Shown: positions 21,666 to 36,898 of the stretch, piece by piece
How positions within the stretch are numbered: position 1 is the first letter of the stretch
Layout of the letters: each line of letters begins with the position of its first letter
Virus record (IMG/VR): IMGVR_UViG_2579778674_000006
Span: 1-43,605 of that record
Length of the DNA: 43,605 nt
From: a virus
Taxonomy: Duplodnaviria; Heunggongvirae; Uroviricota; Caudoviricetes
Reading direction: 5' to 3' (one strand)
Program-made: the position numbers and the translations under genes
The notes under the pieces: model-generated
What the model saw: the letters and a program-made list of their open reading frames with translations, nothing else
Told to the model about the DNA's origin: nothing
Database searches by the model: none

Positions 21666-21740
<75 letters not shown>

Positions 21741-21743
21741 CAT

Positions 21744-21820
<77 letters not shown>

Positions 21821-21821
21821 A

Positions 21822-21898
21822 CTGGACCGCCACCGGGGACTCGAACCTCGCACACTCAACTTAAAGGGTTGACGCTCTTTCCTGATGAACTGGTGACG
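21822..21898 (-). tRNA. tRNA-like gene, anticodon UUU if the loop is read canonically (Lys?), with unusual C33
   Basis: 77-nt cloverleaf, acceptor CCGTCAC/GTGGCGG with one G-U pair, anticodon loop CCUUUAA, T-loop TTCGAGT, CCA end; one T-stem mismatch. Confidence 0.5.
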
Positions 21899-21899
21899 G

Positions 21900-21975
21900 T
21901 TGGTGGCCCTTGCTGGATTTGAACCAGCGACCTGGCGATTATGAGTCGCTCGCTCTCACCACTGAGCTAAAGGGC
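21900..21975 (-). tRNA. tRNA with CAU anticodon (Met or lysidine Ile2, ileX-like)
   Basis: 76-nt cloverleaf, perfect acceptor GGCCCTT/AAGGGCC, anticodon loop CUCAUAA, T-loop TTCAAAT, CCA end. Confidence 0.8.
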
Positions 21976-22093
21976 CGGGCGCAGGATAATAACGTTACGA
22001 AATCAATGTTGCAAGCATTCAAAAATCACCTGGTTAAAAATCACCCTTAGCTCCTCCACCAGCGCATTCACCATGTCTATCCGAGATAAGTGG

Positions 22094-25334: not shown

Positions 25335-25490
25335 TTACTCCTCAGGTTCGTAAGCTGTGAAGACAGTGACCTCCGTCTGGCCGGTTCGGATTCGTACCTC
25401 GCAGAGGTCTTTCCTCGTTACCAGTGCCGTCACAATGACGGTTAAACAGATGACGATCAGGGCGATTAACATCGCCTTTTGCTGCTTCAT
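25335..25490 (-). CDS. hok: Hok/Gef-family type I toxin; the in-frame upstream ORF to 25547 is a possible mok-like leader frame
   Basis: 51-aa product MKQQKAMLIALIVICLTVIVTALVTRKDLCEVRIRTGQTEVTVFTAYEPEE, near-identical to HokD/RelF as I recall it. Confidence 0.85.
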   Translation of the reverse strand: MKQQKAMLIALIVICLTVIVTALVTRKDLCEVRIRTGQTEVTVFTAYEPEE

Positions 25491-25743
25491 AGCCTGCTTC
25501 TCCTTGCCTTTCGGCACGTAAGAGGCTAACCTAGATTTGCCGTTCATAGATTGAGCCTCAGATTAATGTTAAGCGTCTTGCAGGACGCGTAATGTTAACT
25601 GGGGCTTTTCTCTATCTGCCTTTGGTGTTCATGCCTGAGGCAGATAGCCTCAAGCACCCGCAGCAATTCTACTTAAGTTAGATAAGCTTTTCTATGGTAT
25701 TCTCTCAGCGTCCCGTAAATACAGTCTCGGCTCATCATTTTTA

Positions 25744-26007
25744 TCACAGGTGCGAGGAAAATATATAGCGCCCTCCATCAAGCATAACGAAATACATTTT
25801 CCATTCATCGCCATTCCTCAATTTAATACGAAGACTTTCCCCGCAAGTGTATTTATTAAACAACTGTTCCGATGTGCTAGTAAGAGGTATTTTTACCGTT
25901 ATTACAACTACTGCCCCACCATTTAACTCTCGAAGTTCAGCATCCGCATCCACAAAAGATGAATAAATGTTATGATCTGGGTAATCAACAATTAACTGCA
26001 TATTCAC
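25744..26007 (-). CDS. Hypothetical small protein upstream of hok
   Basis: 87-aa ORF, AT-rich, no recognisable family. Confidence 0.45.
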   Translation of the reverse strand: MNMQLIVDYPDHNIYSSFVDADAELRELNGGAVVVITVKIPLTSTSEQLFNKYTCGESLRIKLRNGDEWKMYFVMLDGGRYIFSSHL

Positions 26008-27759: not shown

Positions 27760-28848
27760 TTACCCCCTGAAGCCCGGCGGAATTTCGTTATCCGGTTCAG
27801 AAATATGATTCACACAACGCTGGTTGTTCGTGCCGCTTACCGGGAGCAACCAGGGGTTCTCAAAATTCCGGTCCGGTCCAAAAAACGTCGTCGCTCGCTG
27901 AACAAATTCCGTTCCCGTTTTCCCGGTAGCCGCCAAGTATCTTGCGTAACGCCTCACGCCATCCAGCATGGCCTCTGGTGGCACCCCCTCGCGTAATCTG
28001 GCCTTCCAGGCACTGAAAGCGGATTTCTTCGGGTTTGCCCCAGCACGCAACGGGTACTCCCGCCAGACCTGTTCGAACACATCCGGATAATCCACTCGTC
28101 CCACAGACTGCCCGGTGTTTTCCGGGACTACCCGATCGGCTTCCCGCTGAATGGCGGAATCGGCTTCGGGCTGCTGCAGTTGGTGTGATTGCTCCGGCCT
28201 TGCGGTCATCACCTGCTGCACAGCGCCCGAATCGGCTTTCAGCGCATACGCTGAATCGGCTTCCGGTGTCGTGCCTGCTGGCTGACCAAGATTGACGGTC
28301 TGAACATCCCCTGCCTGGTTCGTGGCGTTTTTTACGCCATGGACCATAGTGTTTTGATCTTCTTGATCTGTATCTTTATCTGTATCTTTATCTGTATCTT
28401 TATCTGTCGTGACTCGTCGTGACATGTGCGTGACATTTCGTGACGCGCCGTGACAATCGCCATTTTGTTCCCGCTTTCTTTCCCTCTCTCGCTGCGCCCT
28501 CTTGCGCTCTGCAGGAGATTTTGCGGTTTGCGAAATATTGCCGTTGTCCTCTTTAAGCACCTGGCGTTTTTCCCATCCAGTGATTAAATCACCATCAAGT
28601 ACCCGCCCCTGCATCGTCTGCAAAATTGAATCAATTACCTCTTCTGTCACGTCGAGCGCACTTGCCAAATCTTCTGTCGTGACATCAATGTGACCTCGCG
28701 TGACATTTCGTGACGCGCTCACCAGGAGGTGGATATACACTGCCATCACTGTTGCAATTGGCTGCCCTGACACCCTGGCAATTGTTCGCCACTTAGGGTC
28801 ATTTGGCATGTCATGCCATAATCTGAGCCAGGCGTTAGCCATACTCAC
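27760..28848 (-). CDS. Putative replication initiation protein with internal iterons
   Basis: 362-aa ORF; central DKDTDKDTDKDTD repeat; two clusters of CGTGAC iterons inside the gene. Confidence 0.65.
   Translation of the reverse strand: MSMANAWLRLWHDMPNDPKWRTIARVSGQPIATVMAVYIHLLVSASRNVTRGHIDVTTEDLASALDVTEEVIDSILQTMQGRVLDGDLITGWEKRQVLKEDNGNISQTAKSPAERKRAQRERERKREQNGDCHGASRNVTHMSRRVTTDKDTDKDTDKDTDQEDQNTMVHGVKNATNQAGDVQTVNLGQPAGTTPEADSAYALKADSGAVQQVMTARPEQSHQLQQPEADSAIQREADRVVPENTGQSVGRVDYPDVFEQVWREYPLRAGANPKKSAFSAWKARLREGVPPEAMLDGVRRYARYLAATGKTGTEFVQRATTFFGPDRNFENPWLLPVSGTNNQRCVNHISEPDNEIPPGFRG
28408..28454. repeat. Iteron cluster 1: five CGTGAC repeats at 10-11 bp spacing, preceded by 12-bp tandem repeats (28367-28407)
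   Basis: CGTGAC at 28408, 28418, 28429, 28439, 28449. Confidence 0.75.
28646..28714. repeat. Iteron cluster 2: CGTGAC-type repeats with one inverted copy
   Basis: GTCACG at 28646; CGTGAC or TGTGAC at 28678, 28689, 28699, 28709; shares a ~21-bp exact stretch (cgtgacatttcgtgacgcgc) with cluster 1. Confidence 0.7.
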
Positions 28849-28913: not shown

Positions 28914-29339
28914 TCAATGTACTGCCACAGCATTTCCTGCCGGGCCACCACGGTTCATCTGATTGAAACCGGCGATTGCCACTGCGACAAAATCATCAGC
29001 GTCTCTCACCAGTCGCTCCCGCGTCTCCACCAGTTCCCGAAAATAAGCTGAACTGTGGCTGCGCATTCTGGCCACCAGCAAAGGTGGCATTGCCTTTTCG
29101 ATCGCTGGTAACAACGCCTGAATTTTTTCAACTGCATCAGGGGTGTCTTTCTCTACCCAGCGGAAAATTTTCTGGGTATTGCGAGCCAGGGCTTCCGGAT
29201 GGCTGTCGTCATACAGTTCTGGGAACGTCATACCCAGTTCAAAATAAGCCCTGGTTATTTCAGCTGCCGGAACTTTTTCACCGTCCGGATGCGCCCAGGC
29301 ATTCATCGCCATGCGGATGTGTTCATGCTTGATTTTCAT
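28914..29339 (-). CDS. YdaT-like protein (CII position)
   Basis: 141-aa ORF starting MKIKHEHI, which matches the start of Rac YdaT as I recall it; second gene of the rightward early operon. Confidence 0.55.
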   Translation of the reverse strand: MKIKHEHIRMAMNAWAHPDGEKVPAAEITRAYFELGMTFPELYDDSHPEALARNTQKIFRWVEKDTPDAVEKIQALLPAIEKAMPPLLVARMRSHSSAYFRELVETRERLVRDADDFVAVAIAGFNQMNRGGPAGNAVAVH

Positions 29340-29604
29340 GAATCAAGCTCCTAGAAAGTGGTTGTGTTAACGTTTTGGTATCTTCCAGCTCGGGCCAAAT
29401 ATTCATCCAATCAAAAGGCCTTAGTTGCTGACGTGTAACTTCACCATTACTGGCTCGCTCAATAAGGACACATAACGATGCCCCTAACACTTGACCTTTA
29501 CTCAATGCCTTTCTTAGATAACCGATGCTGGTACCACACTCGCATGCAAACATACGCTGTTCATCTGACGAAAGAGAATTGAGAAATATTCTTAATTCTT
29601 CCAT
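29323..29604 (-). CDS. Cro-like HTH regulator (YdaS-like)
   Basis: 93-aa ORF divergent from the repressor; HTH-like segment QRMFACECGTSIGYLRKALSKGQ. Confidence 0.6.
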   Translation of the reverse strand: MEELRIFLNSLSSDEQRMFACECGTSIGYLRKALSKGQVLGASLCVLIERASNGEVTRQQLRPFDWMNIWPELEDTKTLTQPLSRSLIHENQA

Positions 29605-29632
29605 AGCTACTCCTTAGTAAACACAGTAAAGA

Positions 29633-29709
29633 ATACCCGCAGGTAAACAAAAGTCAATACCCACAGGTTGTTTACCTTGCGGTGATCGCATCTATTATTT
29701 ACCTATGGA
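29633..29709. promoter_or_regulatory. Candidate operator region between repressor and cro-like gene
   Basis: tacccgcaggta (29633-29644), tacccacaggtt (29657-29668) and tacctatggac (29698-29709, overlapping the repressor ATG); also inverted ggtaaacaa / ttgtttacc. Confidence 0.5.
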
Positions 29710-30124
29710 CAAATATGAATTTAGACGACAGCAACTCATCAAAATTCGTGATGAGAAATGCGATGGTAAAGCGGTTAACGTGGCCAGAAAGATCGGGCGC
29801 GAGCCTTCTTATGTATCAAGAATGTTGTACCCAGAGGGGAAAAAGGGAAAAAAACGGATCGCTGATGATATGGTGGAGATTATCGAAGAGTCCTTTGGGT
29901 TACCCCGGGGATGGATGGATGGTATCGTTTCATCATCAACGAACACAGCCTCCAGTTATGAAACAAGGGTTCTAACGCCACGACAACGTATTTTTTTAGA
30001 TCTCTTAGACGAACTGCCAGAAAGTGAAGCGGATAACTTATTAAAAACTCTTGAAGAGAAAAAACAGTATTACAATATGATCTACGAAGAAATCCGTAAA
30101 AAGAAAGCACAAAACGCATCATAG
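29705..30124 (+). CDS. Prophage repressor (RacR-like)
   Basis: 139-aa ORF divergent from the cro-like gene; N-terminal HTH-like region (VARKIGREPSYVSRML). Confidence 0.65.
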   Translation: MDKYEFRRQQLIKIRDEKCDGKAVNVARKIGREPSYVSRMLYPEGKKGKKRIADDMVEIIEESFGLPRGWMDGIVSSSTNTASSYETRVLTPRQRIFLDLLDELPESEADNLLKTLEEKKQYYNMIYEEIRKKKAQNAS

Positions 30125-30166
30125 CTCACCAAACAACTAGTCACCAGTTAAGACACCGCAAAAAGT

Positions 30167-30203
30167 TACCCATGGGTATTTACTTTTTAAATACCTATGG
30201 GTA
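30167..30203. promoter_or_regulatory. Candidate operator pair upstream of the leftward early operon
   Basis: Perfect palindrome tacccatgggta (30167-30178) and near-palindrome tacctatgggta (30192-30203), centres 25 bp apart. Confidence 0.5.
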
Positions 30204-30389
30204 TCCTTCTTTTCATACCAACCCACCCCGCCCCACAGAATGCAGGGCAATACTTCGAGTTACCAGGCAGTGGTCAGGGGTTAAGTAGCCAGCCCGAGGC
30301 GTAAGAACATGACGGCAGGGTTCAACTTTAATAACTATGCAGCAGGTTTTTGTTCCGCTACCCCGGCGTTAAGGGGAAATGAGGTCAGC

Positions 30390-30545
30390 ATGGATACTAT
30401 CGATCTTGGCAACAACGAATCTCTGGTGTACGGCGTGTTTCCCAACCAGGACGGCACGTTCACCGCGATGACGTATACCAAAAGCAAAACGTTTAAAACC
30501 GAAAATGGTGCCCGTCGCTGGCTGGAAAGAAACTCAGGTGAGTGA
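30390..30545 (+). CDS. Small early protein
   Basis: ORF 30309..30545; likely start at ATG 30390 after the RBS GAGGT (MDTIDLGNNESLVYGVFPNQDGTFTAMTYTK...). Confidence 0.5.
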   Translation: MDTIDLGNNESLVYGVFPNQDGTFTAMTYTKSKTFKTENGARRWLERNSGE

Positions 30546-30674
30546 TATGGATTTCGACACAATCATGGAAAAGGCTTACGAAGAATACTTCGAAGACCTT
30601 GCCGAAGGCGAAGAAGCTCTCAGCTTCAGTGAGTTTAAACAGGCGCTTTCCAGCTCGGCAAAATCTAACGGCTG
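30546..30674 (+). CDS. Small acidic protein (42 aa), translationally coupled
   Basis: ATG at 30546 directly follows the preceding stop (TGA 30543-30545); RBS AGGTGAG; MDFDTIMEKAYEEYFEDLAEGEEALSFSEFKQALSSSAKSNG; below the ORF-track size cutoff. Confidence 0.45.
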
Positions 30675-30704
30675 ATAAGCGAAGTAGCACCGCGAGGAAT
30701 CAGT

Positions 30705-30923
30705 ATGCAGAAACGAGAACCCGTCATAATCGCGCCAGACTATACCGATGATGAACTTTATGAGTGGATGCGCCAGAAAATTAATGCAGCGCAGGATCTG
30801 AAATGGGCTAATGAAGCCAGGGCTAAGCAGGCTGAAAATCTGTCCGCTCTGGAGCAGGATATCACCAATCTGGAAAAAGCAGCGGCATTAAGCATTGCCA
30901 GAATGATTACATACCCGCGTTAA
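30705..30923 (+). CDS. Small early protein
   Basis: 72-aa ORF with RBS GAGGAA. Confidence 0.5.
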   Translation: MQKREPVIIAPDYTDDELYEWMRQKINAAQDLKWANEARAKQAENLSALEQDITNLEKAAALSIARMITYPR

Positions 30924-30924
30924 T

Positions 30925-31490
30925 AGCTAACCAACGAAGCTAAGGTTGGTAATTAAGGAGTTCTCCACGGGTGAGGTGGAGTGCGTGCGCCGGACACGGG
31001 TGAGCATCCGGCACTGACAGTTTACTGAAAGGATATTTCCCTGAAAAGTCAGACCATAACGCGAAAGCGCACGGCGAGGTAGCTGGTTCATAGATAGCCT
31101 GTCGTTAAATTTTCGTCGACCGTGCGCTTCCGGTTGTGGCACTCCGCGAAATGGCGCGGCGGTAAGTATGGCGGGGTTATTCCTTCCCCGTTGAGGACAC
31201 CGGGTTGTCAGGTTGACCATACGCTTAAGTGACAACCCCGCTGCAACGCCCTCTGTTATCAATTTTCTGGTGACGTTTGGCGGTATCAGTTTTACTCCGT
31301 GACTGCTCTGCCGCCCTTTTTAAAGTGAATTTTGTGATGCGGTGAATGCGGCTAAGCGCACGCGGAACAGTTAAAACCAAAAACAGTGTTATGGGTGGAT
31401 TCTCTGTATCCGGCGTTAATTGTTAACTGGTTAACGTCACCTGGAGGCACCAGGCACCGCATCACAAAACTCATTGTTGAGGGCGCGATA
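30925..31490. other. ORF-free, GC-rich, self-complementary segment: candidate structured RNA or regulatory region
   Basis: No credible ORF on either strand; several mutually complementary segments (gccgga/tccggc, cgtgcgc/gcgcacg, ggagtgc/gcactcc, ggttgtca/tgacaacc). Confidence 0.4.
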
Positions 31491-35741: not shown

Positions 35742-35831
35742 TGGCGGAGAGAGGGGGATTTGAACCCCCGGTGGAGTTGCCCCCACTCCGGTTTTCGAGA
35801 CCGGTCCGTTCAGCCGCTCCGGCATCTCTCC
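35742..35831 (-). tRNA. serU: tRNA-Ser (anticodon CGA), serU-like; prophage attachment site at its 3' end
   Basis: 90-nt class II tRNA GGAGAGATGCCGGAGCGGCTGAACGGACCGGTCTCGAAAACCGG...GGGGGTTCAAATCCCCCTCTCTCCGCCA. Confidence 0.9.
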
Positions 35832-36822: not shown

Positions 36823-36898
36823 TCCTCTGTAGTTCAGTCGGTAGAACGGCGGACTGTTAATCCGTATGTCACTGGTTCGAGTCCAGTCAGAGGAGCCA
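36823..36898 (+). tRNA. asnT: tRNA-Asn (anticodon GUU)
   Basis: 76 nt TCCTCTGTAGTTCAGTCGGTAGAACGGCGGACTGTTAATCCGTATGTCACTGGTTCGAGTCCAGTCAGAGGAGCCA. Confidence 0.95.

Follow-up and report, generated by a model that had tools for sequence, protein, structure and literature searches.

In the immunity switch of phage lambda, the divergently oriented repressor and cro genes surround three palindromic operators (the rightward operator, OR): the first two, 24 base pairs (bp) apart, lie over the cro promoter PR, a site centred at about -42 stands beside the -35 element of the repressor promoter PRM, and the third lies over PRM, from which a leaderless repressor mRNA is made. A second operator set (the leftward operator, OL) is located at the leftward promoter PL, downstream of the repressor gene. 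DicA, DicC and dicBp of the Qin prophage of Escherichia coli K-12 have likewise been described as a lambda-like switch in which each of the two promoters has operators (PMC10448788), and DicA has been grouped in the literature with the Gifsy-type repressors (PMC3121763, PMC10448788), of which GfoR, GfhR and GtgR are short, non-cleavable and inactivated by antirepressors. Here, we analyzed a family of palindromic sites on both sides of the gene for a 139-residue repressor, found in the genomic context of the dic genes in a viral sequence of 43,605 nucleotides (IMG/VR record IMGVR_UViG_2579778674_000006; this whole stretch is referred to as the window), which is identified as an E. coli lambdoid prophage of the Qin/dicBF type. 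Sequence comparison makes it very likely that three of the sites represent OR and two represent OL of a lambda-type immunity switch. The immunity allele is uncharacterised but widespread: at least 80% of the 1.1-kb stretch around the sites is covered in 822 of the 5426 complete E. coli genomes (~15%), and no match to this immunity type at high DNA identity was found among deposited phage genomes.

The exact motif, TACCYNNNGGTA (TACC-N4-GGTA), occurs at three places in the window, all within the interval 29633-30203, giving six strand-matches versus 0.25 expected, a number reached in none of 100 dinucleotide shuffles. Scored with a weight matrix made from the sites of other genomes only, these three sites (O1, OLa and OLb; Table 1) reach 19.1-21.2 bits, compared with a top score of 16.8 bits among the 30 shuffles used to define the noise level. 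Further operator-like sites detected in the window by the matrix scan were at noise level (42520, 9.4 bits; 37291, 7.0 bits; 35174, 6.9 bits), and none of them is close to a promoter of interest. The initial annotation, made from the sequence of the window, had listed five sites sharing the motif. The motif is exact at 29634, 30192 and 30167, the last being the perfect palindrome it had been taken for (TACCCATGGGTA), whereas 29658 carries one mismatch and 29700 carries two. The starts of the two downstream sites were given correctly and those of the other three had to be shifted by one or two bases (29633 to 29634, 29657 to 29658 and 29698 to 29700). Likewise, a spacing of 24-25 bp had been proposed for each set and does separate 29634 from 29658 (24 bp) and 30167 from 30192 (25 bp), but the third upstream site listed is 42 bp from the second.

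A motif search beside homologous repressors had been named beforehand as the test on which the proposal could fail. We scanned one genome per species for loci with the N-terminal domain of the repressor and recovered 42, to which phage mEp043 and three closer alleles were added, for a total of 46. The source genera include Yersinia, Edwardsiella, Klebsiella, Pantoea, Aeromonas, Neisseria, Paraburkholderia, Herbaspirillum, Massilia, Xanthomonas and Stenotrophomonas, so that the motif-bearing loci span Enterobacterales, Beta-proteobacteria (including Neisseria and Burkholderiales), Xanthomonadales and Aeromonas. When a slot is counted as filled by a site with at most one mismatch, the slots at about -73, -48 and -33 from the repressor ATG (O1, O2 and O3) are filled in 39, 29 and 36 of the 46 loci, respectively, versus a chance expectation of ~0.0014 per slot per locus estimated from the background rate of the same loci. 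The sites are thus conserved, and slot filling so far above background, together with the shuffles, excludes chance. The shared upstream layout reads tTTACC-N4-GGTAa (around -73), a few bases, gTCAA-TACC-N4-GGtT (around -48), a-TTTACC-N4-GGTA (around -33), TAnnnT, 6-7 bases and ATGGAY, and the corresponding window sites start at -71 (29634), -47 (29658) and -32 (29673). In the O2 slot, the arms are never exact, the right arm being GGTT, GGGA or GGTC in sites with at most one mismatch. Downstream, a pair of sites 24-27 bp apart is found in 32 loci. In an alignment of nine diverse loci, the operator arms are invariant and the central bases vary freely.

The same comparison bears on the identity of the third OR site, which the initial annotation had placed over the start codon of the repressor gene (29700), missing the site at 29673. 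Were 29700 the operator, 29673 would be merely the -35 element of PRM. In favour of 29700, 10 of its 12 bases agree with OLb, its occupation would obstruct the start of PRM, and the site is identical in an E. coli allele of 91% identity. However, it has two arm mismatches and a noise-level score (7.7 bits), its right half coincides with the conserved coding start ATGGAY (Met-Asp), and its left TACC is confined to the window and this closest E. coli allele, being degraded in a Salmonella allele of 84% identity and missing elsewhere, whereas sites occupy the -33 slot in 36 of the 46 loci. An operator over the start codon is accordingly quite improbable; 29700 is probably not an operator, and its place as the third OR site is taken by 29673.

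The three OR sites lie within the 100 bp that separate the divergent cro-like and repressor genes, where they are predicted to overlap the divergent promoters PR and PRM, both of which a consensus scan located independently of the sites. O1 occupies the spacer of PR and, read on the minus strand, ends with the TA that opens the PR -10 element; an A four bases before O1, corresponding to the final T of this element, is present in 29 of 35 loci. O2 abuts the PR -35 element on its upstream side, and its centre is at about -41.5 from the predicted PRM start, adjoining the PRM -35 element, of which the left arm of O3 forms a part (TTTACC). Consistently, the invariant columns of the nine-locus alignment comprise, besides the operator arms, CAA and TTTACC of the two -35 elements (the TTG of PR appears as its complement, CAA) and TA...T of the PRM -10 element. 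Because the latter ends 6-7 bases before the ATG and no Shine-Dalgarno sequence is found there in the window, the repressor mRNA is predicted to be leaderless, starting at or beside the A of the ATG (29705), as for lambda cI.

The second operator set lies beyond the repressor gene, where OLa and OLb are found at a predicted PL ahead of ydfA-dicF-dicB. PL was read from the sequence, as its 8 of 12 matches fall under the threshold of the consensus scan. OLa directly abuts the PL -35 element, and the last TA of OLb is the start of the -10 element. In the family, this arrangement takes the form OLa, TTGACn, 7-8 nt and OLb running into TAnnnT: TTGAC-like bases directly follow the first site of the downstream pair in 28 related loci, as well as upstream of N in mEp043, and a T four bases after OLb, completing the TAnnnT of a -10 element, is present in 28 of 28 related pairs. 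PR and PL thus appear to share one operator geometry, in which one site abuts the -35 element and the other spans the spacer into the -10 element. The likeness to lambda OR/OL noted in the initial annotation is therefore upheld, in that the genes are divergent, three OR sites lie over the predicted PR and PRM, two sites lie at a PL-type promoter and the repressor mRNA is predicted to be leaderless.

The OL pair might instead serve primarily as an intrinsic terminator of the repressor transcript, stopping PRM read-through into the dicBF operon. A terminator scan does report 30167-30203 plus TCCTTCTTTT, and in RNA OLa and OLb would form a 16-bp hairpin (-22.9 kcal/mol, z = -6.1) followed by the U-rich run UCCUUCUUUU (30167-30215). 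Moreover, the central bases are fully pairable (G-U included) in the window, the closest alleles L045 and L047, L002 and mEp043, despite their differing sequences. However, a hairpin is expected from any two copies of one palindrome, and among 32 pairs the central bases are no more complementary than after permutation of the pairs (four bases, P=0.31; inner two bases, P=0.19). Furthermore, the T-run is not conserved in the closest alleles (TCCTACATTCC and CACTAGCC), the bases between and after the OL sites display the -35/-10 pattern, and in many loci the pair is 1-2.5 kb away from the repressor gene, upstream of the next operon. We consider a primarily terminating function unlikely; in the window allele such a role would be secondary at most, and the pair is better described as operators of PL.

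Table 1. Operator sites, predicted promoters and genes of the immunity region (window coordinates)
Feature	Coordinates	Strand	Sequence or elements	Basis and remarks
O1 (OR1-like)	29634-29645		TACCCGCAGGTA	exact match; 21.2 bits; slot ~-73 filled in 39/46 loci
O2 (OR2-like)	29658-29669		TACCCACAGGTT	one mismatch (right arm GGTT); 11.4 bits
O3 (OR3-like)	29673-29684		TACCTTGCGGTG	one mismatch; 9.6 bits; not listed in the initial annotation
Start-codon site (probably not an operator)	29700-29711		TACCTATGGACA	two right-arm mismatches; 7.7 bits; overlaps ATG
OLa (upstream operator of PL)	30167-30178		TACCCATGGGTA	exact, perfect palindrome; 19.8 bits
OLb (promoter-proximal operator of PL)	30192-30203		TACCTATGGGTA	exact; 19.1 bits
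PR of the cro-like gene (predicted)	29630-29657	-	-35 TTGACT 29657..29652; -10 TATTCT 29635..29630	consensus scan, 9/12
PRM of the repressor gene (predicted)	29671-29698	+	-35 TTTACC 29671-29676; -10 TATTAT 29693-29698	consensus scan
PL, equivalent to dicBp (predicted)	30179-30207	+	-35 TTTACT 30179-30184; 17-base spacer; -10 TATCCT 30202-30207	read from sequence
Replication initiator	27760-28848	-
CII-like/YdaT-family gene	28914-29339	-
Cro-like gene, 93 aa, YdaS-type helix-turn-helix protein	29323-29604	-		open reading frame; weak Pfam YdaS match; PHROG 35
Repressor gene, 139 aa	29705-30124	+		open reading frame; PHROG 5736 transcriptional regulator
Start of PL operon: ydfA-like (DUF1391), ydfB, ydfC, DicF small RNA	30309-31316	+		Pfam DUF1391; Rfam
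DicF small RNA	31265-31316	+		Rfam, 76.7 bits

The repressor, labelled 'hypothetical protein' in RefSeq/NCBI, begins with a helix-turn-helix domain (approximately residues 1-73), which a disordered linker connects to a helical hairpin at the C-terminus. In the AlphaFold2 (AF2) model (predicted local distance difference test score, pLDDT, of 84), residues 3-63 form four helices, with the helix-turn-helix at 23-30 and 34-40; residues 76-87 have pLDDT <50, consistent with a flexible linker, and the hairpin occupies residues 92-138. The recognition helix is predicted at approximately residues 34-40 (SYVSRML). Structural neighbours of the DNA-binding domain include the Rep repressor of Salmonella phage SPC32H (5d50, E ~1e-3) and XRE, controller-protein and lambda-repressor folds. 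A sequence search of the PDB yielded nothing significant, the best match (ADAR Z-alpha domain, E=0.076) being regarded as due to chance. No Pfam domain was detected in the 139-residue protein at E<=10, and its N-terminal domain, present from E. coli to Neisseria and Xanthomonas, has no Pfam family; its relatives P0047 and P0041 do match PF00717. With no Pfam match and only the helical hairpin past the linker in the AF2 model, the protein has no Peptidase_S24 self-cleavage domain.

The two halves of the protein have different relatives. Over residues 1-73, the protein shares 65-82% identity with the N-terminal part of many phage repressors of the S24/LexA type (220-240 residues) whose C-terminal halves are unrelated to that of the window repressor. 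The same holds for cI of mEp043 (and of phage CharmingMan): over residues 1-86 the identity is 65%, with no difference in residues 32-56, to which the predicted recognition helix and a conserved basic loop (PEGKxGKKR) belong, but mEp043 cI has 228 residues, an unrelated C-terminal half, and a length and N-terminus that match the S24-peptidase-type relatives. By contrast, residues 89-134 are homologous to DicA residues 84-129 (33% identity, E=1e-7), the Tritos CI protein shows 39% identity over residues 21-139, and the C-terminal hairpin is homologous to the C-terminus of Tritos CI as well. Judging from these similarities, the repressor is a mosaic, with a DNA-binding domain of the mEp043-cI type and a C-terminal domain of the DicA type. 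Its size (a class of ~135 residues), DicA-like C-terminus and lack of a cleavage motif place it with the short repressors of the DicA/Gifsy type. As a separate observation, the database proteins P0012-P0018 (135-136 residues) have an alternative-frame N-terminus (open reading frame 29682-29975) joined to the normal C-terminal part; they rejoin the repressor frame in an A-rich stretch at 29838-29856 (GGGAAAAAGGGAAAAAAACGG), which implies frameshifted repressor alleles or homopolymer sequencing errors.

Cro-like homologues are found divergently upstream of the repressor in ~30 related loci, indicating that the cro gene, the operators and the DNA-binding domain travel together while the C-terminal half of the repressor is swapped. 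Since these homologues accompany the sites nearly as closely as does the repressor domain, itself without a Pfam family, one might suppose that recognition of the sites falls to the Cro-like protein or another factor alone, with no part for the 139-residue protein. This is highly improbable. First, in Klebsiella loci L005 and L008-L010, O1 is kept (in L008-L010 also O3), as are the downstream sites in most of them, but no Cro-like open reading frame was found upstream. Secondly, the motif tracks the predicted recognition helix of the repressor: it is present with SYVSRML and absent in four loci with diverged helices (ASISHML, ATISHLL, AYVYQLM and SYVNRIF). Finally, it is established that repressor and Cro share operators in every characterised lambdoid switch (PMC10448788). 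Recognition of the sites by the 139-residue repressor, shared with the Cro-like protein, is thus preferred.

Two groups of loci depart from the common layout. In Klebsiella loci L005, L006 and L008-L010, O1 is kept, and most of these loci also keep O3 and the downstream pair, but O2 and a recognisable Cro-like open reading frame are missing and a TTGCTATATTTT element is found instead; this is a variant layout of the same module. In the distantly related Advenella loci L038 and L042 (helices ASISHML and ATISHLL, respectively), the motif is replaced, ~50-75 bp upstream of the repressor start, by a longer palindrome (ATACCGC-N8-GCGGTAT in L038, an imperfect form in L042) that may be a changed operator or a hairpin.

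In mEp043, a functional lambdoid phage with annotated cI, cro and N, the same three OR slots (-72, -47 and -32), an OL pair 25 bp apart with identical arms and a homologous Cro are found. The OL pair of mEp043 lies upstream of N and controls this gene rather than ydfA-dicB. With the same arms and identical residues 32-56 in mEp043 cI, and similarly in many other repressors, the motif, which the initial annotation saw as defining the immunity specificity of this prophage, does not define one private to it. A literature search on mEp043 returned nothing on its operators.

Compared with lambda, the operator core of the window is shorter (12-14 bp, TACC-N4-GGTA, versus 17 bp), OL has two sites instead of three, the repressor lacks the S24 self-cleavage domain and its DNA-binding domain has no detectable sequence similarity to that of lambda cI. 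Qin shares with the window the genomic position, the downstream operon ydfA-ydfB-ydfC-dicF-dicB, a short repressor (~135-139 residues) with a homologous C-terminal helical domain and operators at both promoters, one of them in the spacer of the PL-type promoter (PMC10448788). In contrast, DicA has an HTH_3-type DNA-binding domain, the Qin operators are TTAGY...RCTAA-like, and no homologue of the Qin antirepressor Rem was found in the window. The Gifsy repressors resemble the window protein in being short, devoid of a cleavage domain and encoded by lambdoid prophages, and a tblastn search of the Gifsy phage records detected no similarity at E<=1e-3.

In controller (C) proteins of restriction-modification systems, the operators are two adjacent palindromes: binding at the distal one activates, and binding at the proximal one, which overlaps the -35 element, represses. 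The adjacent activating and repressing boxes of C proteins such as C.Esp1396I resemble O2 and O3, and the C.Esp1396I fold is a weak match (E ~0.2) among the structural neighbours of the DNA-binding domain. The likeness is one of layout only; the window locus has no restriction-modification context.

Several observations weigh against the interpretation as a lambda-type switch. By score alone, O2 (11.4 bits) and O3 (9.6 bits) are inside the noise range, like 29700; they are credible because they occupy exactly the family-conserved slots, whereas 29700 lies outside such slots. The predicted PL has only 8 of 12 matches to the sigma-70 consensus. O2 and O3 are 15 bp apart (29658 to 29673), compared with 23 bp in lambda, and with this spacing simultaneous occupancy and the autoregulatory logic may differ from those of lambda. 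The comparative data do not separate binding by the repressor from binding by Cro. As to induction, an exact LexA box (CTGT-N8-ACAG) is absent from the window, the best tblastn match to Rem in the window has E=0.17, and a PHROG scan of eight open reading frames (24.8-28.8 kb) detected no antirepressor family. Finally, a full-text literature search with the concrete operator sequences and motif spellings found no relevant paper.

Sequence comparison directly shows the sites, their non-random occurrence, their fixed register with the repressor gene and with conserved promoter elements, and the presence of the motif alongside the DNA-binding domain and a Cro homologue. From the geometry, and from the precedents of lambda and DicA (PMC10448788), we infer a scheme for binding, order of occupancy, activation from O2, cooperativity and induction. 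A dimer of the 139-residue repressor would bind the 12-14-bp palindrome tTACC-YNNR-GGTAa. With O1 and O2 occupied, PR would be off and the cro-like gene and the rightward operon silent, as the geometry suggests. O2, beside the PRM -35 element, corresponds to the position from which lambda cI activates PRM, and the repressor may likewise activate PRM from there. At O3, binding of excess repressor or of the Cro-like protein would cover the PRM -35 element and switch off repressor synthesis. OLa and OLb, which bracket PL, would keep the ydfABC-dicF-dicB-exonuclease operon silent. The weakest step of the scheme is induction: since the repressor lacks an S24 domain and has a DicA-like C-terminus, induction would presumably proceed, by analogy with DicA and the Gifsy repressors (PMC3121763, PMC10448788), through an antirepressor and not through RecA-stimulated self-cleavage. 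Such an antirepressor could be non-homologous to known ones or encoded elsewhere in the genome. An open reading frame for 87 residues (25744-26007, minus strand) with no PHROG or Rem similarity lies beside hok/sok (sok RNA, 25485-25659), in parallel to Qin, where rem adjoins hokD; by this analogy it is a candidate non-homologous antirepressor.

Variation of the operators within the population was assessed in 33 distinct haplotypes of the immunity region, which were derived from 81 IMG/VR copies and the window and are not independent; O2 and both adjacent -35 elements served as the search anchor and hence are uninformative on variation. Of the 16 central positions in O1, O3, OLa and OLb (four per site), 8 are variable (29638-29640, 29679, 30172-30174 and 30196), compared with 23 of 218 other intergenic positions (Fisher P=2e-4), whereas 4 of 28 arm bases and 9 of 702 coding bases vary. 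Given the non-independence of the haplotypes, this excess is an observation and does not demonstrate selection; tuning, relaxed constraint or recombination may be its cause. In the window, O3 terminates in GGTG, with a G at 29684 where the 32 other haplotypes have the canonical A; over 1101 bp, E. coli strain 201609 differs from the window at this base alone. The G may represent an operator variant private to the window, with weaker negative autoregulation as its effect. A second variant in the O3 arms, 29681 G>A, occurs in 11 of the 33 haplotypes.

Apart from the repressor allele, which differs, the genes around the switch are organised as in the dicA-dicC-dicBF locus of Qin. Downstream of DicF, the plus strand encodes dicB, an exonuclease and int; the gene names of the PL operon are also supported by the RefSeq annotation of a copy with 99.9% identity. 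Homology to other immunity types restarts at 30214-30226, directly past the predicted PL, which makes the operators part of the exchangeable immunity cassette. The PL operon leader (30214-30400, from past the PL -10 element to ydfA) is 88-100% conserved in >4000 E. coli genomes that carry other immunity types, so that the right-hand mosaic junction of the cassette approximately coincides with the PL transcription start. Elsewhere in the window, a phage-borne tRNA gene cluster lies upstream of the lysis genes (21670-21976, minus strand), and a tRNA-Ser gene at the integrase end of the prophage (35745-35831, minus strand), probably the attachment site, is followed by tRNA-Asn (36823-36895, plus strand).

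Conceptually, the locus is another lambda-like switch and as such would not surprise a specialist. It does provide a concrete operator, TACC-YNNR-GGTA, and a promoter map for the immunity type of ~15% of complete E. coli genomes, and, as far as sequence can tell, points to the controller of the toxic dicF/dicB cell-division operon in these strains. We tentatively suggest, as a possibility less probable than its alternatives, that the cro gene, the O1/O2/O3 layout (24-25 and 15 bp) and the 'MDKYE...SYVSRML' domain constitute an ancient immunity cassette of Gamma- and Beta-proteobacterial phages in which exchange has been confined to the C-terminal half of the repressor, this half being either an S24 protease or a DicA-like helical domain. 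If identical arms and recognition region mean shared specificity, the tight O2/O3 pair would work as a controller-protein switch, activating and then repressing, unlike OR2/OR3 of lambda, and the non-cleavable repressor would protect against relatives of the S24 type, mEp043 among them, by a cross-immunity that is SOS-proof; the excess polymorphism of the central bases would then reflect ongoing tuning of operator strength. Cleavable repressors and their non-cleavable counterparts are thus predicted to show cross-immunity, and conservation of the operator from E. coli to Neisseria and Xanthomonas would allow operators and immunity groups to be predicted for many prophages.

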